A DNA stretch of 64,000 nucleotides from Spirochaetota bacterium. Its GTDB lineage: Bacteria; Spirochaetota; UBA4802; UBA5550. A program made the translations under genes and the position numbers. The stretch lies in assembly GCA_025457915.1 (NCBI GenBank), contig JALOTL010000014.1, positions 5,156 through 69,155 of the forward strand, in the 5' to 3' direction. Positions 5,606 through 26,020 of this stretch are shown piece after piece. The notes beneath the pieces are model-generated. The model was given only the letters and a program-made list of their open reading frames with translations. It made no database searches and was not told the origin of the DNA. How positions within the stretch are numbered: position 1 is the stretch's first letter; each line of letters opens with the position of its first letter.

Positions 5606-5623
5606 AAACAGAGGAGAACAAGC

Positions 5624-9533: not shown

Positions 9534-10727
9534 CTACTTCAGGATGAACTCAAGCGTCCTTACGGGCCTGCCGTCGACCAGTATCTCCGCCATCCATTTT
9601 CCCGGCCCGCCGCCGATATCACGGCCCTTCAACGAATAGGACGTATACCACCAGCTCTTCAATGTCTTCCAGTTCCCGATATGCGCCGGTCCATTTTTGC
9701 CCGGAGCGTACACGATGATTTTCATTGAATAGGCGCCGGGAATATCGATCGGGACATACACGTAGACCGCGTCGTCGAGTGAAAAAACGCCGCCAGCGTC
9801 GACCGGCTTGAGGTCTTTTATGCTCCCGCACAGGACGATGTCCCCTTCGGACACGGGCGCCGTTTTCTTCACCGCGAGGCCGTTGTCCGAGTAGACCCCG
9901 CCCTCCTCGGGAACCGTCCTTTCACCGTAATCCGTGACGAACACGAAGGGGATGGCGCGCTTCCTGAATCCGTCCGCGGGGCGGGTCACCTCGAAGTGAA
10001 GGTGCGGGACGTTGCTGTACCCGCTGTTGCCGGAAAGCCCGATAAGGTCGCCGGCCTTCACCCTCCGTCCGACGGCGACCCTCACGCCGTCCTTTACGAG
10101 GTGGTAATAATGCCCCACGCTCCCGTCATCATGCAGGATGATGACGTAATTGGCCCTGTTCCTGTATGACGGTTCAAACCTGCCCTCCTCCTGCCGGTGC
10201 TCCGTGAACAGAACGACCCCGTCCCGGGCCGCGTGTATCGGCGTTCCAACGGGCATGAGGAAGTCGACCGCGTAAGCGGTATCGCCAAAGTGGGTGATCT
10301 TTCCGTTGAACCCCTGTCCGACGCGGAATTTTTTCCCCTTCTCGAAAGGAAGGCGGCAGGCGATTTCCTTTCCCTTCCCGGCGCAAGGCTCCCCCGACTG
10401 CCAGTTAAAGTAAATATTGGCGTTCCAGCTTTTCGAGGGATCGACGACGGTAAACTCCGCGATCTCAACCGGTTCCGGGCCGCGCACGACCTTCGTCAGC
10501 GGGAACCGCTGCGGCGACTTCAGGTTCTCGAGCCGCGGTTTTACCGTGAAGGTGACCGTGGTCACCATGTTCTCCACCGGGAGCCTGTTCCGGAATGCGA
10601 CCCTGACCCGGCCGCCATCCTGCTCCATGATCATGCAGACCGCGTCTTCGGAGCAGTATTCCGCGGGACCGGCGTAAAGCGCGCATGCCGTCAGTACGAT
10701 GATCGCCGCTGCCGTTATTCTTTTCAT
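9534..10727 (-). CDS. Secreted M23-family (LytM-domain) metallopeptidase
   Basis: A signal peptide is present. The M23 motifs are ...YAVDFLMPVGTPIHAARDGVV... (HxxxD-like) and GNSGYSNVPHLHFEV (HxH). Confidence 0.8.
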   Translation of the reverse strand: MKRITAAAIIVLTACALYAGPAEYCSEDAVCMIMEQDGGRVRVAFRNRLPVENMVTTVTFTVKPRLENLKSPQRFPLTKVVRGPEPVEIAEFTVVDPSKSWNANIYFNWQSGEPCAGKGKEIACRLPFEKGKKFRVGQGFNGKITHFGDTAYAVDFLMPVGTPIHAARDGVVLFTEHRQEEGRFEPSYRNRANYVIILHDDGSVGHYYHLVKDGVRVAVGRRVKAGDLIGLSGNSGYSNVPHLHFEVTRPADGFRKRAIPFVFVTDYGERTVPEEGGVYSDNGLAVKKTAPVSEGDIVLCGSIKDLKPVDAGGVFSLDDAVYVYVPIDIPGAYSMKIIVYAPGKNGPAHIGNWKTLKSWWYTSYSLKGRDIGGGPGKWMAEILVDGRPVRTLEFILK

Positions 10728-10799
10728 GGACGCACTCCTTTCATCATTCCAGCCGTAAATAAAAACTTACTCCCGCCGTCCGGGAATACAGCGGACCCG

Positions 10800-12266
10800 T
10801 CAATAACTGCCGCCGGTCACAGAGTTGAGGGCCTTCCGCATGCCCGGATAGATGCGCAGGGCGTTTTTGTAGTAAATCTTCTCAAGCACGTCGGGCGGCA
10901 GGTTCAGGCCGCGGTAGACGTATATGTTCCCTCCCATGAGGAACGTAGAGCCTGTGACGTATTCATCCGTTTCGAGAATACGGAATGTGCGCTCGTACTG
11001 CGCGGCAAACGCATCGTAATTGTTTTTCGCGGTATACTTGCTCATCAGGTCGCTGCCGAAGAGGATGCGGTCGGAGTACTTGATCATGAAGGAGCGCAGC
11101 CTGTCGGAGTCGCCCAGACAGTACTCGGTCAGACCGTAGCAGATATCCAGATTCAGGTTCGGATACGCCTTGAGCATGCGCTCGAGGCGCGTCAAGCGGA
11201 CTTCGTCGATCATCAGGCAGCCCATATGCGCCATCACTGCCACGAGCTTCGGGTGTTTGATTAAAACGCGCTCCCAGCGGTCCATGGCCTCGGTCCAGCG
11301 GGCCTCGGTAAACTCCTTGTTGAAAAATGGCTGGGCGACATGGACCGAAGCCCCCGGCAGCCCGACTTCGGCCATGCGGGCGTAAGTCGGGTCATTGACG
11401 GGATCGTCTATTCCCTTCTGGAACCCCCACCATATCTTGTAGCCGACGACATCGCCGCGCTTCGTCCACATCGTGATTTCTTCCGGCTTGAAGATGAGGA
11501 CATCGCGATATCCGGTCTGGATCACGTACTGGATGCGCTCGCCGTACCGCTTCCTGCTTTCCGCTGGACAAGACTCGTTCCAGCCAGTGTAGAAATTGCT
11601 GTCCAGGTCGACCCAGATGTCTATCCGGGTATCGTATTTTTTTTCCAGGACGCCGCCTATGGCGATGAAGTCGGCGTTCTTTTCCATGTTCATGATATGG
11701 GTGTGGACGTCGATGATGGGCACGCGCGACAGCCCGGGACGTTTGCGCGGTTGCTGGAACGCCTCGGTGACTATGGGTCGGAAGACAAATGTCTGGACAA
11801 GGTTCGGATCGATATCGCGCAGCAGGCCGCGCCAGCTGTCAACGCAGGTGATGACCTTACCGCTCGCGGAGTTGACGATCCGCACGCCTCCCCCCGGCGC
11901 CGCAATGAACCGCCAGCGCTGGGATTTCTTTGCCGTCCCCGGGGTGACAATCACCATGCCGTCCTTGCCTTCGCCCAGGCAGTAGCCCGAGATCTCGGCC
12001 ACGATGTTGAAATCACTGAAAACCGGCGTCGACTGCAGGTAGAACCGCTGGCCGATCCTTCCGTGAAATTTATAAAGCTGCAGGTCCCTGCCAACCGCAT
12101 TGGTCGTGATGTCGAGTACACGGTCGCCCGGGGTGATGGCGAGAGAGAACCGCTGGCCGGGCTGAGGCAGCGCCGCAGCGTTTTCATCCGCGGACAGGAA
12201 ACCGCCGGGGTACGGGGCCGACAGTGAAAAGAAAAGAAGCATTAAAACAGGGGTCAATAATCTCAT
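10800..12266 (-). CDS. Secreted metal-dependent amidohydrolase-fold hydrolase with N-terminal ricin-B-like (QxW) lectin domain
   Basis: A signal peptide is present. Beta-trefoil motifs QLYKF...QRWRF occur in the N-terminal part. The amidohydrolase core has ...IIDVHTHI... (HxH metal ligands). Confidence 0.6.
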   Translation of the reverse strand: MRLLTPVLMLLFFSLSAPYPGGFLSADENAAALPQPGQRFSLAITPGDRVLDITTNAVGRDLQLYKFHGRIGQRFYLQSTPVFSDFNIVAEISGYCLGEGKDGMVIVTPGTAKKSQRWRFIAAPGGGVRIVNSASGKVITCVDSWRGLLRDIDPNLVQTFVFRPIVTEAFQQPRKRPGLSRVPIIDVHTHIMNMEKNADFIAIGGVLEKKYDTRIDIWVDLDSNFYTGWNESCPAESRKRYGERIQYVIQTGYRDVLIFKPEEITMWTKRGDVVGYKIWWGFQKGIDDPVNDPTYARMAEVGLPGASVHVAQPFFNKEFTEARWTEAMDRWERVLIKHPKLVAVMAHMGCLMIDEVRLTRLERMLKAYPNLNLDICYGLTEYCLGDSDRLRSFMIKYSDRILFGSDLMSKYTAKNNYDAFAAQYERTFRILETDEYVTGSTFLMGGNIYVYRGLNLPPDVLEKIYYKNALRIYPGMRKALNSVTGGSY

Positions 12267-12499
12267 GTGGATCTCCTTGTTATCCAGCCACTATTATGCA
12301 GCATGCAACGGAAAGAATGCTGACTGAAAACAATTTACCGGAACGGTACGGGACCGTGTCAATAGTAAAATGAAGGGGGGCCGATTGAAGATTGCCGTCA
12401 ATCTTCACCGTGACGCATGCGATCGCGCCGATCGTCGAAATCCGCGGGCCCGCCAGGCATATACCTCCCGGGGCCCGTAACCCGTGCGTGTTTTTCTTT

Positions 12500-13264
12500 T
12501 CACGATTCCCGTTTCCCCTGGCCCCGGGCAATGAGCTCCGCGAGGATGACCCCGCGCGACCGCTCTTTCAACCTGTCGAGCTGGTCCTCGCCGTAGCCGG
12601 CGGTCTCAATTGCGGGATGTATCGTCATGATCGCGGTGCCGGGGAACACGTTCCAGCCCCCGGGCGGGAGAATGCGCCGGGTGCCGGTGATAGTGACGGG
12701 AAGCACCGGCAGGTTGAGCTCCCGGGCGATTACGAACGCCCCGTTTTTGAACTCACCGAGCTCGCCGGTCAGTGTCCGGGTCCCCTCGGGGAGAATGATG
12801 ATCGACGTGCCATCTACGATTTTGGAGCGGGCGGCATTGAGCGTGATTCTGAGCGCCTCCGGGCTCGAACGGTCGATGTAGATATTGCCGCCTATCTCGC
12901 CCGCATAACCGAACACGGGGACCTTCCGCAACTCCGACTTTATCACCCACTTGATGTTGATGCCGAGCCAGCCGTAGAGCACCAGGATATCATAATGGCT
13001 CTGGTGGTTGGCAATGACCACGTAAGAGCGGCCCTTCACGATGTTCTCCCTTCCGGTTACCTTCACCCGGATCGGCGTAATGCAGGCTATGAACCGCGAC
13101 CACCAGACCCCGGTCGTACGGTGCGCTACCCGGTCATTGAACAGGAACACAACGACGACGCCCATGGCCACGAAAAAGCAGGTCGCGAGCAGGCTCAGGG
13201 GAATGAACACCAGGAGCTTGTACGGCTGATAGAGGAGCCGGATAAGTTTTCGCGTGAAACCCAT
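12500..13264 (-). CDS. plsC: 1-acyl-sn-glycerol-3-phosphate acyltransferase (PlsC family)
   Basis: An N-terminal TM segment is followed by the HX4D motif (NHQSHYDILVL) and the EGTR box (ILPEGTRT). Confidence 0.8.
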   Translation of the reverse strand: MGFTRKLIRLLYQPYKLLVFIPLSLLATCFFVAMGVVVVFLFNDRVAHRTTGVWWSRFIACITPIRVKVTGRENIVKGRSYVVIANHQSHYDILVLYGWLGINIKWVIKSELRKVPVFGYAGEIGGNIYIDRSSPEALRITLNAARSKIVDGTSIIILPEGTRTLTGELGEFKNGAFVIARELNLPVLPVTITGTRRILPPGGWNVFPGTAIMTIHPAIETAGYGEDQLDRLKERSRGVILAELIARGQGKRES

Positions 13265-13324
13265 ACCAACAATCCTTAATCATAAAAAATAGACGCTACA
13301 GGCAGAACGCCGGGCCGGCGGCCG

Positions 13325-13870
13325 CTATTCAGCCGGGAAATATGACGTCCATACAATGGCGTCGAGAACGGCGGTCTGCAAACAGAACGCCGCGCATCCG
13401 ATTACCGCGAGCCGGTGGGCCCAGACGAGCGCGGCCGGCTGAACCGTGATGAGCGCCCCCAGGAGCAGCAGCGACGCAATGCCGGCAATTCCCAACACGA
13501 CGCGGATGCCTGTCCAGGCAATATGCGACGGGTTTGCAATCATATAAAACGTAAGCGGCATCCATAGCGCCGAGGGCACGAGGACCAGGGCATAGAGCCA
13601 TGGAAACAGTCCGTATGAAAAATGACCGGCGATCACGGCCTCGTCGGGGTCCATGCAAAACAGGATAAAATACGTAAAGGCAAGGTATCCCGCCGCCGCG
13701 GTGAACATCGATACGGTGTATACCGGCATAATGGCGCGGGGGACCCCGCCCCAGAGGGCACCGCGCGTTTCAGGGTGATTAATGATGCCGATAGCGTAGC
13801 TGACGAGCACGGCTATGCCGCCTATCAGATTTATCAGCAAAAGGAAGAGCTTATGCGCATGCATGTTCAT
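13325..13870 (-). CDS. Hypothetical integral membrane protein
   Basis: The 181-aa ORF has 5-6 predicted hydrophobic helices. No family was recognised. Confidence 0.5.
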   Translation of the reverse strand: MNMHAHKLFLLLINLIGGIAVLVSYAIGIINHPETRGALWGGVPRAIMPVYTVSMFTAAAGYLAFTYFILFCMDPDEAVIAGHFSYGLFPWLYALVLVPSALWMPLTFYMIANPSHIAWTGIRVVLGIAGIASLLLLGALITVQPAALVWAHRLAVIGCAAFCLQTAVLDAIVWTSYFPAE

Positions 13871-14326
13871 GGTATTTCCCCTGGCCCGGCGCTAAACAAT
13901 CTAAAATTAAAATATTCCTCATGTAAATTAATATACAACAATATTGGCCCGGCGAGTATATATCAAAAAAAAATATTAGCTGTTAAATGGTACCCGAGAC
14001 CGCGGCAGGATAGACGTTTACATCCATAAATTGCTTGATGGGTGTATCGTCCTTGTGAAGATGATTGTCATTAAAACTTCATAACATCAGCAAGGCAGAT
14101 TTGCTTTACTCATCTTTTCCCCCTCTCGGGGCATATATCGCCCCAGTCAGGGGCCGGGTTCATTAAGGGGGGATTTATAACTAAATCCCCCCTTCCACCC
14201 CCCTTAGTTCCGCTCTGCCGCGGCGGCTTGATTTCATCTACCAAATATTATCCGATCGGGGCCTGCGGAACTCAAACAAAGTTGTGAAGACTCGGACAGT
14301 CCTCGGCCAACTTTTATGGACGGCTT

Positions 14327-17300
14327 CGGTTCATCCCCACATGCGTGGGGAATACTTAATCTGGCGAATGGTCTTTATGAATTTATCCGGTTCATCCCCA
14401 CATGCGTGGGGAATACTAGTAATGTAGAAATTTCTGGTTCACCCTTTACGGTTCATCCCCACATGCGTGGGGAATACACGAGATCGCCCTTTTTGATTCG
14501 ATTCCGGCCCGGTTCATCCCCACATGCGTGGGGAATACCGGAATAGCCGCGACAAGCGCGTCGACATAGTCGGTTCATCCCCACATGCGTGGGGAATACG
14601 GCACGCCAATAACAGATGGAATTAACGGAAGCGGTTCATCCCCACATGCGTGGGGAATACGGTCGGTTGATCCGAATTCTGCCGCATTCTGACGGTTCAT
14701 CCCCACATGCGTGGGGAATACCAATAGAAGATATATCATCTATCGTCCATGAACGGTTCATCCCCACATGCGTGGGGAATACGGTCGAACGATAAACGGA
14801 TGCAGAAGATCATCCGGTTCATCCCCACATGCGTGGGGAATACTCCGATGAAGATATCGCAAATTGTATTTATGGCGGTTCATCCCCACATGCGTGGGGA
14901 ATACCGTTATCGCAAGCGCGGCATCGGCAGTTAAGACGGTTCATCCCCACATGCGTGGGGAATACAGTAGACCATTTCCAGTCTTTATAATTAGACCCGG
15001 TTCATCCCCACATGCGTGGGGAATACTTTTATTTCCTCACTTACTATGGCGCAATACCCGGTTCATCCCCACATGCGTGGGGAATACTTTAACAATGGAC
15101 GCAAATAAAATTCTTGATACGGTTCATCCCCACATGCGTGGGGAATACTAGCTTTCCACTCATCCAGCATCCTCGAGTAACGGTTCATCCCCACATGCGT
15201 GGGGAATACATCGGATGCCTCGACCGGCGACGCGGCGGCGGTTCATCCCCACATGCGTGGGGAATACGTTTTCCTGTGTTTTAAACGGATCGTCTGATCC
15301 GGTTCATCCCCACATGCGTGGGGAATACGAAAAACACCGGGGGCGCGTGGACCTGTTCCGCGGTTCATCCCCACATGCGTGGGGAATACAAAAACAGAAA
15401 TGACAGTCCCGGTTGACCCATCGGTTCATCCCCACATGCGTGGGGAATACTTAGCCTTGTCCATAAGCGACGGAGCCGGGGCCGGTTCATCCCCACATGC
15501 GTGGGGAATACTCCATAAAAAATCCTTTTAAAATAATTTAGTCCGGTTCATCCCCACATGCGTGGGGAATACTCGGACCAAACTGAGGGTCCCCAAATTT
15601 TGTGCGGTTCATCCCCACATGCGTGGGGAATACTCCATAAAAAATCCTTTTAAAATAATTTAGTCCGGTTCATCCCCACATGCGTGGGGAATACTAAAAA
15701 ATTGTCGTTTTTCATTTTTTGGCCTCCGGTTCATCCCCACATGCGTGGGGAATACATGAGAAAACACGGTTGTTTAAAATAACATGACGGTTCATCCCCA
15801 CATGCGTGGGGAATACCTGATATGCTCTGACATTATGTTTATATTCTCCGGTTCATCCCCACATGCGTGGGGAATACTTAATCTGGCGAATGGTCTTTAT
15901 GAATTTATCCGGTTCATCCCCACATGCGTGGGGAATACGCTGCTGCCTGTGTATATACAGTCATGTATCCCGGTTCATCCCCACATGCGTGGGGAATACG
16001 AACAATGAAAGAGACTGTAAACTGGAAGGATGCGGTTCATCCCCACATGCGTGGGGAATACGTTGCGGTAATAATAATCATGATAATCAGTTTCGGTTCA
16101 TCCCCACATGCGTGGGGAATACAAACCCCTTCATTCCGGCTTTTTTTACTATCGCGGTTCATCCCCACATGCGTGGGGAATACGTCCTATGGCCGGGGCA
16201 AGACGAAAAATTGAACGGTTCATCCCCACATGCGTGGGGAATACTATAAAAACCTACTGTCCACAATCCCGGCTCACGGTTCATCCCCACATGCGTGGGG
16301 AATACTGCGCCCTCATTCATCGGTTCGCCCTGGTCATCGGTTCATCCCCACATGCGTGGGGAATACCTGGGGAGCCTGCAGAGCGTGGGCGGGTCCCTCG
16401 GTTCATCCCCACATGCGTGGGGAATACAAGCGGTGTCAGCATAACAACGGCGGCGAACACGGTTCATCCCCACATGCGTGGGGAATACTTAATACACCTG
16501 CCTAAAATAGCAGAGTCCACCGGTTCATCCCCACATGCGTGGGGAATACCAACTCTCTCTCTGTTTTGGCATCCTGTATTGCGGTTCATCCCCACATGCG
16601 TGGGGAATACACCATCAGCAGTTGATTTTTTGAGACCATTACCGGTTCATCCCCACATGCGTGGGGAATACTCCCAACATGGTCCGGAGGAGGCGGATTA
16701 TTCCGGTTCATCCCCACATGCGTGGGGAATACTTGCCCGATCCAGTCGTCATGTTGGTTATTGCCGGTTCATCCCCACATGCGTGGGGAATACTTTTTTA
16801 CCTATCACCTGCCCCATTACTCTACCGGTTCATCCCCACATGCGTGGGGAATACAGCGTTACATTTTTTGTCGGGTTCGTTACATTCGGTTCATCCCCAC
16901 ATGCGTGGGGAATACTACTACATGATGGGGAATGCATCAGGGGATTGCGGTTCATCCCCACATGCGTGGGGAATACAGATGAACGAAAAAGAATTGAATC
17001 AGGACAAACGGTTCATCCCCACATGCGTGGGGAATACCCGGGAGCCTTTTCGATGACCGAGACATCCGGCGGTTCATCCCCACATGCGTGGGGAATACGG
17101 GCAATGCCCTGACTAATCTTGAAATCATAGCGGTTCATCCCCACATGCGTGGGGAATACAACATCCTGATTTGATCAAATAGACACTTTTTCGGTTCATC
17201 CCCACATGCGTGGGGAATACTATCACGTTTGACGTCACGGTGATAGTATCGCCGGTTCATCCCCACATGCGTGGGGAATACGAATTTGAACTGACTGGAG

Positions 17301-17830
17301 AAAAAGATTATAACGGTTCATCCCCACATGCGTGGGGAATACTCAGCCTTCCGGATGCGTCATATTCGCCCCCCCGGTTCATCCCCACATGCGTGGGGAA
17401 TACGTTCCCACCGCTATATCGGCAAACAAGCGCGACGGTTCATCCCCACATGCGTGGGGAATACTTCAATTGCAAACCGAGTTCATCGATTCGACGCGGT
17501 TCATCCCCACATGCGTGGGGAATACTGCATCAGCGTCGTTTGAAGTATTCGCGCTTTCGGTTCATCCCCACATGCGTGGGGAATACTCTCAAAGCGTCTA
17601 CATAGTGATTATGTTTATCGGTTCATCCCCACATGCGTGGGGAATACTGCCTTGCCTGCCTCGCCTTGCCTAGCCCCGCCGGTTCATCCCCACATGCGTG
17701 GGGAATACTTAAGTTTCGATTGGTTCGCCGTCCCGCTTTTAGGTTCATCCCCACATGCGTGGGGAATACTTAACCCACGTTTTCAACATCTCGGGGTCAT
17801 CCGGTTCATCCCCACATGCGTGGGGAATAC
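14327..17830 (-). CRISPR. Type I-E CRISPR array of 58 repeats (29 bp) and 57 spacers (mostly 32 bp, 61-bp period), transcribed on the minus strand
   Basis: On the plus strand the repeat reads CGGTTCATCCCCACATGCGTGGGGAATAC. Its reverse complement GTATTCCCCACGCATGTGGGGATGAACCG aligns 21/29 with the E. coli I-E repeat, including the 3' ...GGGGATGAACCG handle, and the plus orientation matches only about 11/29. It contains a 6-7-bp stem (CCCCAC/GTGGGG) with a 4-nt loop. All ORFs called inside this interval (HPHMRGEY, SSPHAWGI, FIPTCVGNT repeats) are artefacts of repeat translation. Confidence 0.97.
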
Positions 17831-17871
17831 TCTAAAACGATGTATAGTAGTTTTCAAGGAACTATGCTGAA

Positions 17872-18174
17872 TTATTCAGCCACATCATTACTCTTTTTCT
17901 TTTTTACCGGTTTACTCAGTAACGAAATTCCGTCAAAATCTATAACGTTTCTATCGGGATCACCATTCACCCTTATACCATACGACTGTTCAGTATTAGT
18001 TGTGAATATCATAATCGCATTCAAGTTCCACTCGGATACGATACGCTCCCACAGCTTATCCTTCACCCGTGCCCCGACATCGGCGACGAAAACGCCGCTT
18101 TTAACCTCAATAGCTAACCGCGACATCTCGCCCCTCTGCGAAGGGGTCGATTTCTCCAACATAATCACTACCAT
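17872..18174 (-). CDS. cas2: Cas2 (type I-E)
   Basis: MVVIMLEKSTPSQRGEMSRLAIEVKSGVFVADVGARVKDKLWERI... aligns with E. coli Cas2 ([47 protein letters not shown]...). Confidence 0.9.
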   Translation of the reverse strand: MVVIMLEKSTPSQRGEMSRLAIEVKSGVFVADVGARVKDKLWERIVSEWNLNAIMIFTTNTEQSYGIRVNGDPDRNVIDFDGISLLSKPVKKKKSNDVAE

Positions 18175-18991
18175 AAATCAAATCCTTCAAATCCGGTATG
18201 ATTCTCTTCATTATCCTTACCTGACGGAATCTATCCCGCAGCGAATATCTTACCCTGCGTTCTACGTCTTCTGCTGATTCTTTGACAATTTCGAAGGCGA
18301 CAGGAATTGTTATATCAGTTTTATACAGGTCGGCTATATCATAAACTAAAGAAAGTTGTTTGCCGGTGTGAACGAACCCGATCGCCGTTGAGAACCCGCA
18401 AGCCAGAATCGCGGCTTGAACCACGCCATATAAACACGCATTAGCTGAAGACAAAGCTCGGTTCAGCGGATCTCCATAATTCCAGTTCTCCTGATCATAA
18501 CTCCGTCCTTTCCAGTCCACACCATGTTCTTCCGATAAATCCTTATACGCCTTGCGCATACGGGCGCCTTCCATCCCTCGTATCTGTTCTATGGAGGCTT
18601 CCTTCTTTATTATTTCATTGAATCTTTTTTGATACATGGCCCTGATGACATTATCGCGCGACACAGGATCGCTGTAAATCTCAACCTGTTTCAATAAATT
18701 CCTCGATGAATATGTCCCAGAATAACCTGATGAATAAAAGCGCACTCCCATCTCGCCCGTCCATGCCACAAGACACCGGCTGTCAGAAATGCGTTTGATG
18801 GCCTCGTGAGTTATCGATGTGCCGGGACCGAGCATAAGCAGACAAAGGGTCTCGATCGGCACCGGTATTACCTTGTCGAGATAATGAAAACCGATAGATT
18901 TTTGATGCTGGTCTATAATGCCTTTCTCAAAATAGAGATAGGACCAGGTATCTTCGAACTTCGGAATTTCCTGAAGGTCGCGGTTGGTCAT
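18107..18991 (-). CDS. cas1: Cas1 (type I-E integrase)
   Basis: The 294-aa product shares ...PVPIETLCLLMLGPGTSITHEAIKRIS...GMEGARMRKAYK...LYGVVQAAILACGFSTAIGFVHTGKQLSLVYDIADLYK... with E. coli Cas1e. It overlaps the cas2 start by 68 nt. Confidence 0.92.
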   Translation of the reverse strand: MTNRDLQEIPKFEDTWSYLYFEKGIIDQHQKSIGFHYLDKVIPVPIETLCLLMLGPGTSITHEAIKRISDSRCLVAWTGEMGVRFYSSGYSGTYSSRNLLKQVEIYSDPVSRDNVIRAMYQKRFNEIIKKEASIEQIRGMEGARMRKAYKDLSEEHGVDWKGRSYDQENWNYGDPLNRALSSANACLYGVVQAAILACGFSTAIGFVHTGKQLSLVYDIADLYKTDITIPVAFEIVKESAEDVERRVRYSLRDRFRQVRIMKRIIPDLKDLIYGSDYVGEIDPFAEGRDVAVSY

Positions 18992-18993
18992 GG

Positions 18994-19671
18994 TTAACCT
19001 TTCTCCGCCTCAATTTTGTTTATTCTATGCGGAACAAATTGTCTTTTTCTGCTATCGAAGCTTATTGCATTGTCCAGCAAAGAATCTATTCCTTGTTTGA
19101 AATCATCGACATCCATTTGCCGTGTGAAACTTGAAATAGATTTTTCTCCAACGAGGGATTTAACTGCATCGGCTTCTGTTTCAAATAATCCCGCACATAC
19201 TGGTGCCGTTGGTATACAGCTTTTTCTGCCGAGCCAGATACCCCATGCAGGGTCCTTTAATGCTTGTGCGGCATTATCAAGTAAGTGTTTATCACCGGAT
19301 AATATCACACCGAATGCGGCATCATTCAGATATTGGCGGTAAGTGATCACGGCATTGGGATTGGAAGCACCGCTGGCTTTGATCGTTCCTTCAACGGTGT
19401 GATAATCAATCAACCTTCGTACTTCAAATACCCGTTTACCTTCAATGCGGGGTATTGAAATCGCAAGCATCTTAAGGGAAAGGAATTTTTCAAGAAAAGC
19501 TTTTTCATCATCCGATCCCCGCGAATAGCCGAGAGCTGCACAACACATGCCAGCAACAGCACTCTTGGTAGGCATGAGACCGGTGTTGCGCCGGTTAAAC
19601 TGGCTGTCGTATCCCCATGACTGCATGGGGCCTTCCAATCGCAAGGCAAGGTATCCGGTCTTATTTGACAT
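18994..19671 (-). CDS. cas5: Cas5e (CasD), Cascade subunit
   Basis: MSNKTGYLALRLEGPMQSWGYDSQF...LIDYHTV...QYLNDAAFGV...WLGRKSC matches the E. coli CasD N-terminus (YLILRLAGPMQAWGQPTFE...LRDYHTV...LGRRSC). Confidence 0.9.
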   Translation of the reverse strand: MSNKTGYLALRLEGPMQSWGYDSQFNRRNTGLMPTKSAVAGMCCAALGYSRGSDDEKAFLEKFLSLKMLAISIPRIEGKRVFEVRRLIDYHTVEGTIKASGASNPNAVITYRQYLNDAAFGVILSGDKHLLDNAAQALKDPAWGIWLGRKSCIPTAPVCAGLFETEADAVKSLVGEKSISSFTRQMDVDDFKQGIDSLLDNAISFDSRKRQFVPHRINKIEAEKG

Positions 19672-20695
19672 ATTTATCCACCTTCTTTAATAATTCATCA
19701 AGAGTAATATCAGGTATGGATTCACAGAGGGACTCATTCAGCCCCCATGTTTTTTTGTTATTATCATATTCGTTGTTTAACGCCTCCTTGGATAATTCAA
19801 AAATGCTTTTCCCATCCTTAGGACGTATCGGTTTTTCAAAAGCATTTACAAGCTGTATTGGATGACCTTCATCACGAACAACGCATTTTACATATCCTGG
19901 AAGCGTATTCCCATTCATCGAATTTCTTCGCGCAGAAGGCATTGCCATGAGAGTGGATTTTATAAAAGTTTTTACTACTTCTTTGCGTTCATTCAATGCA
20001 ACGGCTTCAAGATGGGATTCATCTGCAAGCATATCAAGGTTAAGGGCTGAAAATCTGTAATAGGTGGCTGAATTATATTCCAGTGTGCCCATCATACCAG
20101 CACCTACTTCTTCATTCTTTTGTCTGTCATCAACAGCAGTAAAAAAATCAATCTCGTTATCGGCTTTATGAGTTGAAATAGCATGAGAAAACATTGCTGC
20201 TCCTTCTATTTTAAGATCTGGAGCATCAGCCACCATTCTACCGAATAAACATAAATCCGCAGCATCCTTCAGTAAATCTTTTGATCCACCAGCTTTAATC
20301 GCCTTTTTCACATCTTTAGTAGCTGCATACTCCTTGGCCATTGACTCCAATTCCCTTTGTGTAGTAAAAAACATGGTCTTCACGCGGGTTTCTGTATCGA
20401 CTTTGTTCATCGCACCAGCAATGACTTTTGCACCCTCAATCGAATCATTCTTGTTTAGGCCTGCCTTTTGTAGTTGTTCAGTTAATGGTTCAATTATTAG
20501 TTTAGTTCTCTCCCCCCTAAACCCCTGAGGATATAATTCCTTGGCCATATCTCTTATCGCTCTCTTCCAGCACTGGCTGGACACTCGTGCCCGTTGTACA
20601 CCACCAAAAATCGCGGTCTTGGGCGAATTAAGATCATCGCGATTTAAACAGGAAACCGGTACTGATTGCAGAATATGTAATTCAAGATGTTTCAT
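19661..20695 (-). CDS. cas7: Cas7e (CasC), Cascade backbone subunit
   Basis: MKHLELHILQSVPVSCLNRDDLNSPKTAIFGGVQRARVSSQCWKRAIR... matches the conserved Cas7e N-terminus (…HILQ..P.SNLNRDD.G.PKTA..GGV.RARVSS..WKRA.R). Confidence 0.9.
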   Translation of the reverse strand: MKHLELHILQSVPVSCLNRDDLNSPKTAIFGGVQRARVSSQCWKRAIRDMAKELYPQGFRGERTKLIIEPLTEQLQKAGLNKNDSIEGAKVIAGAMNKVDTETRVKTMFFTTQRELESMAKEYAATKDVKKAIKAGGSKDLLKDAADLCLFGRMVADAPDLKIEGAAMFSHAISTHKADNEIDFFTAVDDRQKNEEVGAGMMGTLEYNSATYYRFSALNLDMLADESHLEAVALNERKEVVKTFIKSTLMAMPSARRNSMNGNTLPGYVKCVVRDEGHPIQLVNAFEKPIRPKDGKSIFELSKEALNNEYDNNKKTWGLNESLCESIPDITLDELLKKVDKYVK

Positions 20696-20706
20696 TGTGT
20701 TACTCC

Positions 20707-21348
20707 TTATTGTAATTTTAACGGTTGTATGACCATCATGCCGAACCCGAAGCCCTTGGCGCTGCCTATACCCATCATAAATGCCTTTTTAAAGGCTTCT
20801 CGATCTATAACTTCGAGGACTCCCTGAAATCTGATGCCTACGTGAAGCCCAGGGTCACTTTTAATCTGATTTTTTATAAACCGATAATTTTGCGCAGGCT
20901 CAATAAAAAGCGGGGGATCATCCAAAACTGAAAAGCCACTCTCTTGTGCCTTTCTGTTAAACCAGTTGATCTGATCTTCCAATATTGTAAGCGCTTTTCT
21001 CATTCCATTTTTAGTACGTTTACCCTTATCATCTGTTTTGGGAATCTTTTTCGTTGGATTTGCTTTTATATCGAAACGATAAAAATTATGATCAAGAAAA
21101 TCATTTTTTAATTCCCTTACCGCCCAACAATCTTCAGGACACCATTCGGGACGCATAGGCTCTTGTAATGCCAGAATAAAAAGCCGAAAACCTCTCTCAA
21201 CCGTATCGACCCTGAACAGAAAATCCCTAGTTTTATCAGGCTCACCGGGAAATGCCTTCCATGCGGCTTTATGCCATGCATAAACGTCAAAAAGCCTGTA
21301 ACGTGCCGCGGTTTTACAGTCTATTACAGCTTTACTCAGGTATTTCAT
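20707..21348 (-). CDS. cas6e: Cas6e (CasE), crRNA endoribonuclease; located upstream of cas7e/cas5e (non-canonical order)
   Basis: From the internal Met the product reads MKYLSKAVIDCKTAARYRLFDVYAWHKAAWKAFPGEPDKTRDFLFRVD..., aligning to E. coli CasE (MYLSKVII...LYQLHQGLWHLFPNRPDAARDFLFHVE). It has a Gly-rich C-terminal loop (GSAKGFGFG). The ORF extends to 21408 but the start at 21348 is preferred. Confidence 0.88.
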   Translation of the reverse strand: MKYLSKAVIDCKTAARYRLFDVYAWHKAAWKAFPGEPDKTRDFLFRVDTVERGFRLFILALQEPMRPEWCPEDCWAVRELKNDFLDHNFYRFDIKANPTKKIPKTDDKGKRTKNGMRKALTILEDQINWFNRKAQESGFSVLDDPPLFIEPAQNYRFIKNQIKSDPGLHVGIRFQGVLEVIDREAFKKAFMMGIGSAKGFGFGMMVIQPLKLQ

Positions 21349-21835
21349 CGACCACCTCCGCCCCAGACGCCCAGAAGGAAGTCGCCCAACGGGTTTTAAC
21401 ATTATCACCCCAATAGATCAGATCACTTTCCAGTAGGACGTAATTAACCGGTAATCCTTCCGCTTTTGCTCTCAGTACAATCCTTTTCACCCGTTCGCAA
21501 ATCTCATCTCGATTTGAGGCAATAAGGTATTGCAATCGCTTGGCCATTGTGCCAGGTTTAGAGTCAACTTTTCTTAATTCATTCCTTTCATCATCGCTGC
21601 ATAATTGAAAACACAATGAACCGATATTTCCTTTTAAAGTAGGCTCTGGATGGCTTGCGAATAATCCAGCAACGGTTTGTTTTACCCGAGCCTCATGTTC
21701 ATCTCCTATTCCGCCAAAATAGCCAAGATGCGGATATGCCCGAAAACGTTTGCTTTCAACCAGTGCGCATCGAAGATCGGCCATTAAACCCCGGTCATCC
21801 TTTTTCTTAACCAAATAATCAAGTAAAGCGCTCAT
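21332..21835 (-). CDS. cse2: Cse2 (CasB), Cascade small subunit
   Basis: The 167-aa alpha-helical protein sits between cse1 and cas6e. The motif ...DRGLMADLRCAL... is typical of Cse2. Confidence 0.75.
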   Translation of the reverse strand: MSALLDYLVKKKDDRGLMADLRCALVESKRFRAYPHLGYFGGIGDEHEARVKQTVAGLFASHPEPTLKGNIGSLCFQLCSDDERNELRKVDSKPGTMAKRLQYLIASNRDEICERVKRIVLRAKAEGLPVNYVLLESDLIYWGDNVKTRWATSFWASGAEVVDEIPE

Positions 21836-23469
21836 AGGTTTTCCTCCTCTTGATTTGTTTTTACCTGAATCGAATTAGTATCTTGTTCTTTTTTATTTAA
21901 AACCCTCCAGCCAAGCACAAAGGCCCTTATCTGACGCGGGGTTTCTCTGCCGCATACAAGCTTATACGATTCACGGGCTGCAGCAAAAAGTGTTTTCTGC
22001 CAAACTTTACGTGTTGCTTCGACTTTTTCAGCTGATGTACCTATTGCTTCAATATACAACATCAACAGCGGAAGTGATTTTTCGATAGTAGTCCAGTAGT
22101 GGGTGGTGGCTTTGGAATGTATTTGTACACGCAATAAATAAGATGAGCTGCTGCTCTTCAATCTCCCCTCCCAACCACCATCAAAAGCTTTTCTATATTC
22201 TTCTATCGCCCAGCCTAACTTCTTCGATATTATTTCTGCGAACTGGACTTCATTTTCATAAGCTGCTCGTCCTGCATTACTAAACATTTTTTCATTCACA
22301 TGATATACACTATCTACCATATCAATAATTGAAGCTTGGTCTCGTGCTAAAGCGAGTATATGAAAATCAACGGATTCATTCTGATCAATATTCATCAGGC
22401 ATAGTGGGCCTCCTGCTTGTTGTGCTTTTCTTTTAACAACCATAGATGGAAGCTCTCGCCACGTTGCCGTTTCAGGATTGAATCTTAACAACGAAAAAAT
22501 TTGTTTTTTTGTGTTTCTTGACAAAATTACGGTTGCAGTAACTTCTGGCGGGAAAGGTATTTTTGAATTAAATGATCGATACATTAATCCTTCACCAATG
22601 ATCATGCAATCACATGATGGAAGAATTCTTATAAGACGACTTAGCGGCACCAATCTTCCTAGATACGTCTCTGTGGCATTATTGATGAAATCTACATCTG
22701 ACCGTTTTGATGGAAATTTTTCCCATATTGGGTTGCCCCAATAGTTTTCTCCCAGTGGTGAGTAATGCATTCGTAGTTCTTTTTTTGTTATTAGATTCTT
22801 ATTAATCGTCTTAGCGATATTTGAAGATCTGATGAAACAATGATACATACTGCCTGGTGAACAGGGACCATCCGATGGATTTGGAGGTTTTTTTTCTGGT
22901 GGAATACCGCCCCATATTACTGCTGCTGTTTTACCACCTGCAAGGAAAAAATTCTGAAATGATAAAAGTTGCACAGCAATTTCAGAAGGGCTGAACTCCC
23001 GGAGAATTTGAGATGATGCTTCATGATCGAATAAGGTCGGATTGACACCTGATGCTAGCGTATGATCTAGTTTGCTTAATGATATCTGTCCGCCCTCATC
23101 ATCATTGTCTTGGTTTTTATCCATTTGTGACTTTGTTAAATTTGCTATCTGCAAAAAAGGCTTCTTGGGATGAAACAAATCGAAGGAATCACGCCATTTA
23201 TCCAGATAGTTTCGTGCAGCTCCGGGAAGTATTTCTTTCGCATTGAGCCAATCATCGTAATCTTCTGGCCCATCAAGCGAGGCATGTGCAATGCAGAGCA
23301 ATAAACGCATGAGAGATACTCGCTCGTGCGGTCTGACTGCAAGATCAGCATAATTTTCACCATCGGCAAAAACATCCATCAAGCCGATCAATCTATATTC
23401 ACCTTTCAAATTAGTGACAGGTATCCACTTTTCATCGACAAGATTGAATCCCTTATTCTGACGATTCAT
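21832..23469 (-). CDS. cse1: Cse1 (CasA / Cas8e), Cascade large subunit
   Basis: From the internal Met the product reads MNRQNKGFNLVDEKWIPVTNLKG..., matching the Cse1 N-terminus (MNLLIDNWIPVR...). It is about 545 aa. The ORF as called extends to 23487 and overlaps cas3. Confidence 0.85.
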   Translation of the reverse strand: MNRQNKGFNLVDEKWIPVTNLKGEYRLIGLMDVFADGENYADLAVRPHERVSLMRLLLCIAHASLDGPEDYDDWLNAKEILPGAARNYLDKWRDSFDLFHPKKPFLQIANLTKSQMDKNQDNDDEGGQISLSKLDHTLASGVNPTLFDHEASSQILREFSPSEIAVQLLSFQNFFLAGGKTAAVIWGGIPPEKKPPNPSDGPCSPGSMYHCFIRSSNIAKTINKNLITKKELRMHYSPLGENYWGNPIWEKFPSKRSDVDFINNATETYLGRLVPLSRLIRILPSCDCMIIGEGLMYRSFNSKIPFPPEVTATVILSRNTKKQIFSLLRFNPETATWRELPSMVVKRKAQQAGGPLCLMNIDQNESVDFHILALARDQASIIDMVDSVYHVNEKMFSNAGRAAYENEVQFAEIISKKLGWAIEEYRKAFDGGWEGRLKSSSSSYLLRVQIHSKATTHYWTTIEKSLPLLMLYIEAIGTSAEKVEATRKVWQKTLFAAARESYKLVCGRETPRQIRAFVLGWRVLNKKEQDTNSIQVKTNQEEENL

Positions 23470-26020
23470 CAGACACCCCCTGGGCACGTATTATTTCCAA
23501 ACCTTTATCAATAGTCCATTTAAGTCTTATTCCTTTTTTCAAATTAGCGACATCGAGAAAGCCTCCATCACCAGGCACTGATAAAATCACACAGCCTGAA
23601 ACATATTTCGGAAGATAAGCTAAAGATATTTTTTTTTCGAAAACCCATGCGGGCACTTTAACAAGATTTTTTTGAATCGCTTTTCCAGTATCCTTGCTTT
23701 TCTTCCCGGTTTTTTCTTCTTTTCGGGGTATTTGAGAACCGTTTAATAGAATAATAAAATTATCTAATCGCTCTCTGGCAAGTATTATGGACACCGTCGA
23801 CTGGGTATTATAGCGAGTCATTACTTCTTCTTCATCGTCAAGTGATGGCATTTTTAAAATCGCTGTGGCAATTAGAGCTTTCTGCATGAGACCGTTCTTT
23901 TTTTCATGCAAGTCAGCTTTAAGCTCTTTCCATGATTCTGATGGTTCAACATTTTCGGAATAAGTATATTCTATAATTGAACGGATATCAAAGGGAATTA
24001 AGATGGTTTTGGTGTCACGCTTTTTCCACTCCATATAGGTTCGAAGCAAAACATAAGGATCGTATACATATGCTTTATTTCCTAATGCTTTACGAATTTC
24101 GCTCGATGTCATTTCAATGGATTGCTGAATATTAAAACTCTCCTTAAGAATCCAGAGTTCCGGCTTTTCAATTGGCCGTAAATGCCGATTGTGTCTCCAC
24201 AATCTCCCGATACGTTGGAGAAGCATATCAGTCGGTGCAAGTTCGGTTATAATCAAGTCGGCATCGATATCCACGCTCTGTTCTACAACCTGAGTAGCTA
24301 CCAGAATACATGAACCGCGCCCATTCCCATTTTTTCCAAGTTTTTCTAGCCATTTTTGCTCAATCTCCTCTCTTCTAAAAAACGGAAATCGAGAATGTAA
24401 AAGGCCGATCTCGACTGATCCTCGGTTTTCTTTATGTTTAAAAGAGTCGTATATTTCCTGTGAACGGGCAATAGTATCGCATATCCAAACTATCGAAGCT
24501 CCATTTTGCGCTTTTCCCCATGCATTAGAAATTGCTTTATTTTCATCAATAAAGCGTATGGCTATTTCTTTATTTTCTGGAGAATCAAGCGTAACGTCTG
24601 GTAGTATTTGTCCATCTGCGGTTTTTCCGCTGAGAAGAGGGTACCCGTTTGAGGAAGTCTTTTCATCATTATCAATGTCAAGCAATTCTATTCGCCGCGT
24701 TGCAGTAAGCGTGGCAGAGAGTATAATTACTGTGGCGCCAAGTTGTACGAGAGATCGACATAAATTATTTATGAGTGTTCCAGTATATATATCATAGGAA
24801 TGCACTTCATCAAGAATCACCACTTTGCCAGCCAGCGCAAACAGGCGAACAAAGAAATGCTTAACAGCTATAACACCCATGAGCGCCTGGTCTACAGTTC
24901 CTACACCAAATGGTGAAAGCAATGCGCGTTTTGGAGATGAAAACCAATCATATGCTGAGTCTCTTTCTTGGCTATCTCCATCAGGGTTGTTATTAATCTC
25001 CGGGATTTCAATTTTGTCATCTAATAACCAAGAGTTGCCGTGTATTAATTGTATAGATAGTGTTTTTTCGCAGATTCTATTGATAAAATCGACAACCCTT
25101 AGATGGATACGATTACTTGTAGTTTGGGTGGGGAGCGCAAAATAAATACCCGAAGCCTTTCCACTATTACAAAGCTGATAAGCAACGGAAAGTGCGGCTT
25201 CTGTTTTCCCTATACCCATAGGTGCTTCAATGACATAAATACCAGGCTCTTTTATAAATGCATTAACTGCAGTCTGTAGAGCATTTGCCTCGAATTCGAA
25301 GTAATCATAGAAATGCTTGCCGTTAATAATTGAAGGACGCACAAAACCAATATTATATAATGCTTCTTGGGTCCGTATTCTCGATTCTTCTGGGGGGATA
25401 TTACTCCCGGCAGGAAAAAACCGCTCATCGGACCCGATCCAATCGGACACCGTTGTCAAACCTGCAACAAACCAAAGGAGTGGATTGTCCGGTTTAACCG
25501 GGGAACTAATCAATTTGCCGTTGTTTTCAATAAAACTCTTTGCTACTTGACGACGCTTTTCTTCCCAGTAATCGTCACTCATTCCGAATCCCGGCAATAA
25601 TCCTCTCTCTCCATTATAGGTTATCCGACCGTGATGAGCGCCGATGGCCGCAGCCCAAAGCGTTGATGACATGCGGTCAAGTCCTGTATCCATTAATAAG
25701 TGCTCAATAGTATATTGGCTTACTTGAGAATGATTATATGGTGAGTTATCCCATCCATTTCGAATATCTTCCTTTTCCAAATTATACTTATGAAGCCACC
25801 CATGGCATTTCCTTTGAAATTGTGGAGAGATTTTACCTAAATCATGAAGGCCCGAGAGTATGGAAATATCAGTATTGGTAATATCAATACTGATTCTGGG
25901 ATAAAATATCGAAAAAATGCATTTTGCTACTGATGCAACATTTTGCATGTGGTGGTAAACATCTATCCCTGGGTTTTTATCTTCTGTTGTTTTTGCCCAA
26001 AATTCAATGTTATTCTGCAT
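23453..26020 (-). CDS. cas3: Cas3, HD nuclease fused to a superfamily-2 DEAH helicase
   Basis: The N-terminal HD domain has ...VYHHMQNVASV...LHDLGKISPQFQ.... The helicase has Walker A (APMGIGKTEAAL), a DEVH box (VILDEVHSYD) and motif VI (QRIGRLWR). The product is 855 aa. Confidence 0.93.
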   Translation of the reverse strand: MQNNIEFWAKTTEDKNPGIDVYHHMQNVASVAKCIFSIFYPRISIDITNTDISILSGLHDLGKISPQFQRKCHGWLHKYNLEKEDIRNGWDNSPYNHSQVSQYTIEHLLMDTGLDRMSSTLWAAAIGAHHGRITYNGERGLLPGFGMSDDYWEEKRRQVAKSFIENNGKLISSPVKPDNPLLWFVAGLTTVSDWIGSDERFFPAGSNIPPEESRIRTQEALYNIGFVRPSIINGKHFYDYFEFEANALQTAVNAFIKEPGIYVIEAPMGIGKTEAALSVAYQLCNSGKASGIYFALPTQTTSNRIHLRVVDFINRICEKTLSIQLIHGNSWLLDDKIEIPEINNNPDGDSQERDSAYDWFSSPKRALLSPFGVGTVDQALMGVIAVKHFFVRLFALAGKVVILDEVHSYDIYTGTLINNLCRSLVQLGATVIILSATLTATRRIELLDIDNDEKTSSNGYPLLSGKTADGQILPDVTLDSPENKEIAIRFIDENKAISNAWGKAQNGASIVWICDTIARSQEIYDSFKHKENRGSVEIGLLHSRFPFFRREEIEQKWLEKLGKNGNGRGSCILVATQVVEQSVDIDADLIITELAPTDMLLQRIGRLWRHNRHLRPIEKPELWILKESFNIQQSIEMTSSEIRKALGNKAYVYDPYVLLRTYMEWKKRDTKTILIPFDIRSIIEYTYSENVEPSESWKELKADLHEKKNGLMQKALIATAILKMPSLDDEEEVMTRYNTQSTVSIILARERLDNFIILLNGSQIPRKEEKTGKKSKDTGKAIQKNLVKVPAWVFEKKISLAYLPKYVSGCVILSVPGDGGFLDVANLKKGIRLKWTIDKGLEIIRAQGVSDESSE

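Follow-up and report, generated by a model that had tools for sequence, protein, structure and literature searches.

The window, a stretch of 64,000 nucleotides from an uncultured Spirochaetota bacterium, carries a complete type I-E cas operon on its minus strand, co-directional with a long CRISPR array (Table 1). All eight type I-E Cas proteins gave Pfam matches above the gathering score, the Cse1/Cas8e and Cse2/Cas11 signatures included. The cas1 and cas2 genes overlap by 68 nt, and the cas2 stop codon, at 17872-17874, faces the array. The real start of cas6e may lie further downstream than listed, the JGI call being 213 aa.

Table 1. Features of the type I-E locus, in positions of the window
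Feature	Position	Strand	Details
CRISPR array	14327..17830	-	S1 (17770-17801, adjoins cas2) to S57 (14356-14387)
Spacer S55	14478..14509	-	30/32, baseplate wedge gene on the contig that S2 also matches, IMGVR_UViG_3300037461_000560; 5' flank AAG
Spacer S8	17343..17374	-	32/32 in the portal gene targeted by S6; 5' flank AAG
Spacer S6	17465..17496	-	32/32 in portal gene, IMGVR_UViG_3300037461_000610; 5' flank AAG
Spacer S2	17709..17740	-	31/32, tail/baseplate-like gene, IMGVR_UViG_3300037461_000560; 5' flank AAGT
Last base of repeat 2	17741	-	T for G (plus strand A)
Spacer S1	17770..17801	-	32/32 in large terminase gene, IMGVR_UViG_3300037461_000715; 5' flank AAG
Conserved leader core	17831..17857	-	positions -1 to -27, TTGAAAACTACTATACATCGTTTTAGA
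Gap between cas2 and repeat 1	17831..17871	-	41 nt, 31.7% GC, TTCAGCATAGTTCCTTGAAAACTACTATACATCGTTTTAGA
cas2 stop and last 14 codons	17872..17916	-	tail ...KPVKKKKSNDVAE then stop, including ..SNDVAE then stop; past the Pfam Cas2 domain
cas2 (I-E type)	17872-18174	-	PF09707, E = 4.7e-23, domain aa 1-85 of 100
cas1	18107..18991	-	PF01867
cas5e	18994..19671	-	PF09704
cas7e	19661..20695	-	PF09344
cas6e	20707..21408	-	PF08798
cse2/cas11	21332..21835	-	PF09485
cse1/cas8e	21832..23487	-	PF09481
cas3 (HD nuclease and helicase)	23453..26020	-	PF18019/PF22590

The array consists of 58 repeats of 29 nt, CGGTTCATCCCCACATGCGTGGGGAATAC on the plus strand, and 57 spacers, 55 of which are 32 nt long (the other two are 29 and 33 nt). 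The repeats are identical in 57 of the 58 copies, and the sole variant (17741-17769) differs in its last base. There are 55 unique spacers, two being duplicated inside the array; the last spacer, S57, is a duplicate of S32. The repeat has no further copy in the rest of the window and no degenerate one past either end of the array, nor did any spacer have a target within the window at up to 6 mismatches. The repeat farthest from cas2 (14327-14355) is perfect, without degeneration. A perfect terminal repeat and a duplicated last spacer are atypical of a trailer end, though in five arrays elsewhere with near-identical repeats the cas2-distal repeat is degenerate, which speaks for a trailer on the side away from cas2.

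Read on the minus strand, the repeat GTATTCCCCACGCATGTGGGGATGAACCG is identical to the E. coli K-12 repeat GAGTTCCCCGCGCCAGCGGGGATAAACCG at 22 of 29 positions, and at 7 of the 8 positions of the 3' handle, in agreement with the alignment proposed in a preliminary description of this DNA. Both repeats fold alike, into 4 nt, a 7-bp stem, a 4-nt loop and 7 nt. The length of about 29 nt, the stem-loop, the 8-nt 3' handle ending in ACCG and the spacers of about 32 nt are those of type I-E.

Protospacers and the orientation of the array

Five spacers closely match phage contigs in IMG/VR. All of these contigs come from sample 3300037461, the one from which the window itself derives. The scan covered eight spacers, five of them cas2-proximal and three distal, and the matches to S8 and S55 came as by-catch. 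The targets of S6 and S8 are on the same strand of the same portal gene, separated by 200 nt. S2 differs from its protospacer by a single mismatch at position 18, while S55, at the old end of the array, has mismatches at positions 4 and 7, both in the seed. Matches to S4 (7 mismatches, in another sample) and S49 (8 mismatches) were rejected as protospacers, and a BLAST search of the 55 unique spacers against 50,697 GenBank phage records gave no match. Against the idea that the phage matches are assembly chimeras of host array reads, the protospacer flanks are not repeats and fall within terminase and portal open reading frames.

The preliminary description had taken the array to be transcribed from the minus strand, and had named the side on which the PAM falls as a check. 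The trinucleotide AAG, expected by chance at a given site with a frequency of 1/64, stands directly 5' of the minus-strand spacer in four of the five protospacers, and the fifth, that of S2, has AAGT. Read the other way round, the protospacers have 3' flanks without a consensus (TAC, AGA, TTA, AAT and AAG). The 5' AAG in four of five protospacers shows the array to be oriented on the minus strand, with transcription predicted in the same sense as that of the cas genes.

The same flanks bear on the one repeat variant, a G to T change at 17741 that the preliminary description had already recorded. The variant T is also the base at -1 in the S2 protospacer, whereas the other four protospacers have at -1 the G with which the consensus repeat ends; the PAM-proximal prespacer base is thus the last repeat nucleotide, as in type I-E systems. 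In E. coli the last nucleotide of the I-E repeat derives from the PAM (PMC3338789), and a +1 slip yields an AGN PAM (PMC3338789; bioRxiv 10.1101/2020.02.10.942821). Judging from the flanks, the T at 17741 is a PAM-derived base that was brought in with S2 by a +1 slipped acquisition. Both the PAM-derived repeat end and the slip are known biology.

The cas2-array gap and the leader

Is a gap of 41 nt between cas2 and the array unusual? The preliminary description placed the leader there, with which position and orientation agree, and correctly gave the gap as 41 nt of AT-rich DNA, but regarded this length as anomalous. In a set of 70 type I-E loci whose Cas1 proteins are related (the window and 69 relatives), the median gap from cas2 to the repeat is 35.5 nt, and it is 41 nt or less in 46 of the 69 relatives, so that the gap is short in comparison with E. 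coli K-12, where the cas2 stop lies 105 nt from repeat 1, but not in comparison with its own relatives. Indeed, arrays of 47, 91, 26 and 37 repeats lie 5, 18, 1 and 18 nt from cas2, respectively. In 24 related loci from several phyla, just 29-39 nt separate the conserved Cas2 core from repeat 1, and the stop codon is 1-19 nt from the repeat. A helical phasing of this core-to-repeat distance was considered and dropped; the distances form only clusters at 29-39 and 57-60 nt, the latter small and made up of related loci. The best explanation of the short gap would seem to be a compaction typical of the lineage and not a defect, and we put at about 0.8 the probability that the locus is a canonical type I-E system, active at present and equipped with a compact leader.

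Leader conservation was measured in an alignment of the 10 nearest loci (Cas1 56-74% identical). Mean pairwise identity is 0.51 at positions -27 to -1, 0.31 at -41 to -28 and 0.23 at -70 to -42. Conservation is confined to about 27 nt beside the repeat, and this core, common to relatives from the Leptospirales clade, fits wholly within the 41-nt gap. Its junction with the repeat, TATAC..TTTTAGA/G (the slash marks the boundary), resembles the end of the E. coli K-12 leader. A motif TC(T)TTGA(A/C)AA recurs in several leaders, at -27 to about -90 in distant loci; in the nearest relatives it is phased and bounds the conserved core on the 5' side. It may be a -35 box or else an integration motif in fixed phase. 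In type II-A leader-anchoring, the integration site is marked by a short conserved block right beside the first repeat; the likeness is an analogy of mechanism only, drawn from another subtype and another Cas1-Cas2 lineage.

Upstream of repeat 1, an AT-rich stretch about 86 nt long reaches into the non-conserved tail of cas2. This tail (17872..17916), with 31.1% GC where the cas2 core has 46.5%, varies in sequence among relatives; it is a candidate for the upstream part of the leader. The earlier proposal that leader signals overlap the 3' end of cas2 is thus possible, given the AT-rich tail, but such an overlap is not required, the sole conserved block being inside the gap.

In E. coli about 60 bp of leader are required, which include an IHF site (-9 to -35) and an integrase-anchoring site (IAS, -44 to -59) (PMC5224486). 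A leader of this kind could be present here as well, IHF-dependent, about 60 bp long and with the Cas1-contacting motif at -44 to -59 inside cas2 codons. Such a leader would be a sub-variant of the explanation by compaction and would not contradict it. The E. coli requirement itself (PMC5224486), the E. coli-like junction and the extension of AT-richness over about 86 nt into the cas2 tail are all in keeping with it, as is a reverse match with 2 mismatches to the IHF consensus WATCAANNNNTTR at -34 to -22, where the E. coli site sits; E. coli's own IHF site, at -35 to -23, is also just a 2-mismatch match. However, a search of 17831-17930, the interval singled out earlier for an IHF-like site, yielded no match with 1 mismatch or fewer, and 2-mismatch matches are as frequent as chance. 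Moreover, the sequence upstream of about -28 is unconserved in the ten nearest loci (0.23-0.33). No conserved integrase-anchoring motif was found at -44 to -59 in these loci, the identity of 0.23 for -70 to -42 being background. This interval comprises the last cas2 codons and the stop in the window, and in the 24 loci with 29-39 nt between Cas2 core and repeat an element placed there would fall in constrained coding sequence. Altogether, we consider an E. coli-style leader unlikely. No IHF or HU genes were seen in the window, a 64-kb piece that is uninformative on the host in this respect.

Perhaps the leader of this lineage is instead a junction-proximal core of at most about 27 bp, with the promoter and a second integrase contact inside the cas2 coding sequence, a possibility that we hold only tentatively. 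If it were true, this would be dual-use DNA, with the C-terminus of Cas2 and leader signals written in the same bases; alternatively, polarised integration would depart from the E. coli paradigm and proceed without IHF on a minimal leader.

The only sigma-70-like match in the gap, TTGAAA-17-TAGAGT at 17857-17829, is weak and is not relied on here, since transcription from it would begin within repeat 1; the count of promoter-like matches across the region does not exceed that in shuffles (6 found, 9.7 expected). A second weak promoter candidate lies at 18006-17977. A scan for terminator-like sites between cas2 and repeat 1 found none, and Rfam returned nothing at the gathering score; sub-threshold hits to Chlorobi-1 on the repeats and to a tRNA-like element at E = 0.09 are irrelevant.

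These features can be assembled into a proposed mechanism. The conserved core of about 27 nt, TTGAAAACTACTATACATCGTTTTAGA/G, would mark the integration junction from entirely inside the gap, and the counterpart of the E. coli integrase-anchoring site at -44 to -59 would lie in the AT-rich, unconserved last codons of cas2. Because there is no terminator between cas2 and the array, the pre-crRNA may start inside or upstream of cas2, driven by an internal promoter or formed as transcription of the cas operon reads through. Cas6e would then cleave at the repeat hairpin and leave the 8-nt AUGAACCG handle.

Spacer acquisition

The perfect phage matches, those of S1, S6 and S8, cluster near cas2, among only eight spacers scanned. 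Three of the five cas2-proximal spacers scanned have a match with 0-1 mismatch (S8 is an extra), against none of the three distal ones, where the by-catch S55 has its two seed mismatches; the numbers at both ends are small. The perfect match of S1, S6 and S8 to co-occurring phages suggests that new spacers enter at the cas2 end, and we infer that Cas1-Cas2 integrates them at the junction of repeat 1 with the 41-nt gap. The close spacing of the S6 and S8 targets on a single strand of one gene is characteristic of primed acquisition.

The preliminary description had also suggested that the array might be badly placed for acquisition. Could it be a fossil, or an array with so little leader that acquisition has stopped or is unpolarised? 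The gap of 41 nt is indeed below the 60-bp minimal leader of E. coli, and two spacers are duplicated in the array. However, the 58 repeats are identical save for one PAM-derived base, three spacers perfectly match phages of the same sample, and the S6 and S8 targets cluster in the primed manner. Furthermore, related loci with still shorter gaps bear very long arrays, of up to 91 repeats. A defunct array is therefore very improbable. Transcription from the plus strand, with the leader at 14.0-14.3 kb, has next to no chance of being right and is refuted by the PAM analysis: while the palindromic repeat folds equally well both ways and the 14.3-kb end of the array has the kind of perfect repeat that is usual next to a leader, plus-strand flanks lack the consensus that the minus strand has, the -1 base of the protospacers tracks the repeat-end variant in the minus orientation, the flank at 14.1-14.3 kb is 52% GC and strongly structured, and the repeat with its handle resembles that of E. 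coli solely in the minus-strand sense.

A look-up of the exact Cas1 protein found it in two contigs only, the source contig itself (identical, JGI 3300037461) and one from Logan that is broken off within repeat 1, and the exact Cas2 protein, with either of two alternative starts, is not on record; these look-ups gave no sister array for comparison. No near-identical strain with a differing array was found, and hence there is no direct view of spacer gain. The leader-repeat junction had no match in a metagenome scan, and a scan for the repeat gave 18 loci, whose Cas2 proteins are only 35-49% identical and which are thus not closer relatives.

Comparison with known type I-E systems

The locus is a textbook type I-E system in an uncultured bacterium and of little importance by itself. 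Its orientation, AAG PAM, slip-derived repeat end and primed-type clustering are nevertheless legible from one metagenome and its own phages.

The closest Cas1 proteins (56-74% identity) belong to I-E loci of Leptospirales metagenome-assembled genomes and Leptospira borgpetersenii (L001-L009). These loci share with the window the 68-nt cas1/cas2 overlap, near-identical repeats and the leader core of about 27 nt, and their gaps are short, 23-65 nt in most. Their Cas2 C-terminal tails, of 10 to about 70 residues, are completely different in both sequence and length. The GC content of the window's flanks is 55-62% and that of the cas operon about 40%, and therefore the host may not be a relative of Leptospira.

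The window has the same set of cas genes as E. coli K-12, with the array likewise downstream of cas2 and co-directional. The two systems also share the 29-nt repeat with its 7-bp stem, 4-nt loop and 8-nt A-U-rich handle ending in ACCG, the 32-nt spacers, the 5' AAG PAM, the end of the leader, and a PAM-derived last repeat base with +1 slips (PMC3338789). They differ in gene order (cas6e-cas7-cas5 in the window, cas7-cas5-cas6e in E. coli), and in that cas1 and cas2 are separate genes in E. coli. The Cas2 of the window has about 9 extra C-terminal residues, its terminal repeat is not degenerate, and its leader, unlike that of the E. coli type, is without a convincing IHF consensus site. In this branch of type I-E, the gap between cas2 and the array is usually less than 40 nt and often less than 20 nt, and leader-finding tools that are confined to non-coding DNA miss part of the signal at such loci. 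Type I-E systems in general are not built around the 60-bp IHF-dependent leader known from E. coli.

Transcription strand of the array and the base at 17741

The array (14327-17830) consists of 58 copies of a 29-nt repeat, CGGTTCATCCCCACATGCGTGGGGAATAC on the plus strand, and 57 spacers, numbered here on the minus strand from S1 next to cas2 to S57 at the far end. Fifty-five spacers are 32 nt long; the other two (S30 and S43, see table) have non-canonical lengths, which in E. coli are often tied to slipping (bioRxiv 10.1101/2020.02.10.942821). No extra repeat copy, intact or degenerate, lies past either array end or elsewhere in the window. The reverse-complement repeat, GTATTCCCCACGCATGTGGGGATGAACCG, agrees with the E. 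coli K-12 repeat at 22 of 29 positions, and at 7 of the 8 in the handle, and has the same predicted fold. Because the repeat hairpin is palindromic, folding by itself cannot set the strand.

The preliminary description had placed transcription on the minus strand, with the leader between cas2 and repeat 1, and had proposed the PAM side of protospacers as a check. GenBank phages gave no spacer match. IMG/VR was scanned with seeds from cas2-proximal S1, S2, S4, S5 and S6 and from distal S54, S56 and S57/S32, and protospacers were found on three viral contigs, all from sample 3300037461, the window's own (its sequence recurs unchanged within JGI metagenome contig 3300037461 Ga0392394_0000090). 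Four of the five protospacers have AAG immediately 5' on the spacer-identical strand, the chance expectation being 1/64 per site, and the five 3' flanks share no common sequence. Such an arrangement is canonical for I-E PAMs; it fixes the predicted direction of transcription as the minus strand, as proposed, and refutes plus-strand transcription; the leader placement was likewise right.

The sole repeat variant, as described earlier, closes the second repeat: base 17741 is T instead of G on the minus strand. All repeats are otherwise identical. Spacer S2 directly follows this repeat end. Its protospacer, with a single mismatch at position 18 (where, as at every sixth position, I-E crRNAs do not pair), has T at -1 and AAG at -4 to -2; the other four have G at -1, the usual last repeat base. 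In the E. coli I-E system, the last repeat base is PAM-derived and arrives with the spacer (Swarts et al., PMC3338789). The variant is thus an imported by-product of spacer acquisition, not a mutation, and it independently confirms the minus-strand orientation. The AAGT arrangement is a "+1 slip", the commonest non-AAG acquisition class in E. coli, and gives an AGN PAM; since AGT is among the few such PAMs reported without interference or priming there (bioRxiv 10.1101/2020.02.10.942821), S2 may be a weak spacer.

Features of the locus and of the matched phage contigs (L084, L086; IMG/VR)
Feature	Position	Strand	Remarks
cas3	23453-26020	-	
cse1	21832-23487	-	
cse2	21332-21835	-	
cas6e	20707-21408	-	
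cas7e	19661-20695	-	
cas5e	18994-19671	-	
cas1	18107-18991	-	
cas2	17872-18174	-	stop 17872-17874
HTH_11-WYL-WCX gene	26291-27262	+	
S30	16000-16032		33 nt
S43	15210-15238		29 nt
S57 = S32	14356-14387 = 15878-15909		duplicate
S38 = S36	15512-15543 = 15634-15665		duplicate
Trailer hairpin	14165-14194		
(G/A)TC(T/C)TTGA(A/C)AA motif	17852-17860		also in related loci L006, L007, L008, L010, L013, L017, L031, L070
S1 protospacer			32/32; AAG; large terminase gene
S55 and S2 protospacers	L084, 848-879 and 4984-5015	+ and -	S55: 30/32; AAG; baseplate wedge gene. S2: 31/32; AAGT; tail/baseplate-like gene
S8 and S6 protospacers	L086, 4482-4513 and 4681-4712	+	32/32 and AAG in each; portal gene

The gap between cas2 and the array

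The gap from the cas2 stop to the end of repeat 1 at 17830 has exactly the length and sequence first given (41 nt, 31.7% GC), compared with 105 nt in E. coli K-12, where acquisition depends on about 60 bp of leader that includes an IHF site (-9 to -35) and an integrase-anchoring site (-44 to -59; PMC5224486). A search by Cas1, with each species represented by a single genome, yielded 80 loci; closest to the window are those from Leptospirales MAGs and Leptospira borgpetersenii (56-74% Cas1 identity), and the remainder come from many phyla at about 50%. The cas2 stop and first repeat were located in 70 loci, the window counted, and an independent first pass was made. The median gap is 35.5 nt; in 46 of the 69 relatives it does not exceed 41 nt, and only 17 of them have 60 nt or more. 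Arrays of 47, 91, 26 and 37 repeats go with gaps of 5, 18, 1 and 18 nt, respectively. If the distance is instead taken from where the conserved Cas2 core ends, the repeat is 92 nt away in the window, the exact median of the loci. A tight cluster of 24 loci among L010-L080 (from Planctomycetota, Chloroflexota, Acidobacteriota, Armatimonadota and other bins) has only 29-39 nt from the core (..DFEGLxLV) to the first repeat; their cas2 stops lie 1-19 nt from it, essentially without a non-coding leader. Past the core, Cas2 tails vary freely in length and sequence. Judged by these sequences, the gap is not unusual for this lineage, and the anomaly seen in its shortness falls away.

In an alignment of the 70 nt preceding repeat 1, made for the window and the nine loci closest to it, conservation is confined to roughly -27 to -1 (mean pairwise identity 0.51; 0.63 at -18 to -10), dropping to 0.31 for -41 to -28 and to background, 0.23, for -70 to -42. 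T-16 and A-13 are invariant, and C-17, T-6 and T-4 are common to nine of the ten leaders. The window core, TTGAAAACTACTATACATCGTTTTAGA running into GTATTCC, ends like the E. coli leader, ...AAGAACAAATGTATACTTTTAGA running into GAGTTCC; the 70 loci as a whole share no more than a T-rich run with AG(T/G/A) after it at the junction. So limited, the conserved core fits inside the 41-nt gap. It had been suggested that leader signals overlap the cas2 3' end. Leader-like composition does overlap it, extending over about 86 nt (31.1% GC in the cas2 tail codons, 46.5% in the cas2 core); the ten-locus alignment has no conserved sequence in the AT-rich tail. Overlapping signals are possible, but the conserved core does not need them.

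The IHF consensus WATCAANNNNTTR has no match with one mismatch or fewer in 17831-17930. One reverse-oriented two-mismatch match lies at -34 to -22; such matches occur at chance frequency, and the functional E. coli site (-35 to -23) is itself just a two-mismatch match. Sigma-70-like matches are no commoner than in shuffles. A candidate promoter in the gap (TTGAAA-17-TAGAGT, 17857-17829) is doubted because its predicted start falls inside repeat 1, destroying the first Cas6e hairpin; another lies inside cas2 (18006-17977). No terminator-like site was found between cas2 and the array, which makes read-through from the cas operon plausible; relatives with 1-19 nt gaps must use read-through or else a promoter inside cas2. 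Perhaps this I-E branch has a minimal, IHF-independent leader, or signals embedded in cas2, a tentative idea with the odds against it. Separately, the motif (G/A)TC(T/C)TTGA(A/C)AA occurs upstream of the first repeat, from -27 to about -90, in several phyla, where it may act as a -35 element or bind a protein.

Acquisition and the far end of the array

Three of the five cas2-proximal spacers scanned match same-sample phages with 0-1 mismatch, S8 being found as by-catch; none of the three distal ones (S54, S56, S57/S32) matched phages in IMG/VR. Distal S55, also by-catch, has two mismatches within the seed (positions 4 and 7). The numbers are small, and they point in the expected direction. The targets of S6 and S8 lie within 200 nt on the same strand of a single gene, the clustering expected of primed acquisition, and the targets of S55 (old, seed-mismatched) and S2 (new) on opposite strands of one phage contig look like primed adaptation. 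Considering the uniform repeats, these matches, the S6/S8 pattern and the relatives with shorter gaps, the array is well placed for acquisition; the suggestion that it is poorly placed was wrong.

Two spacers are present twice. The last spacer, S57, is one of these duplicates, and a perfect, non-degenerate terminal repeat (14327-14355) follows it; in five arrays with near-identical repeats, the far-end repeat carries five mismatches. This suggests that the array, after segmental duplication or recombination (S32 to S56, then S32 again), lost its original trailer end. Alternatively, the protospacer of the S57/S32 duplicate may have been acquired twice, or the assembly path may have run through a repeated node. 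A perfect hairpin, AAGGGGGGATTTA-TAAC-TAAATCCCCCCTT, lies 130 nt past the last repeat, and the predicted fold of the 207-nt trailer (14120-14326) beats those of shuffles by a wide margin (z = -4.07). The hairpin, which has no clean U-tract, may terminate the array transcript or a convergent upstream gene.

The cas operon and its standing within type I-E

The type I-E cas operon directly right of the array is complete, and every gene product matches its Pfam family above the gathering score. The Cas2 domain covers residues 1-85 of 100, and the tail, ending ...KPVKKKKSNDVAE, exceeds its E. coli counterpart by about nine residues. The cas1 and cas2 genes overlap by 68 nt (18107-18174) in different reading frames, as they do in L001 and L003-L009 of the Leptospirales clade; the overlap is 1-188 nt in other relatives and absent in E. 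coli. Divergently upstream of cas3 is the HTH_11-WYL-WCX gene (families from Pfam precomputed for the identical JGI contig); regulators of this kind often neighbour cas operons. The 26-28 kb stretch is the most AT-rich of the neighbourhood (34% GC). The operon (18000-28000) has 39-44% GC versus 56-62% in flanking genes (1-6000, 10000-14000), a contrast that, with the closest Cas1 in low-GC Leptospirales, would fit a horizontally acquired CRISPR-Cas module.

The repeats, cas2 stop, gap and variant of the preliminary description are borne out in full, and the locus has all of the defining type I-E features tested: gene set, repeat/spacer geometry, AAG PAM and PAM-derived repeat end. It differs from E. 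coli in its gene order (cas6e-cas7-cas5), the cas1/cas2 overlap conserved in its clade, the compact gap, the lack of a detectable conserved motif at -44 to -59 and the non-degenerate terminal repeat, and these five differences leave it within known type I-E.
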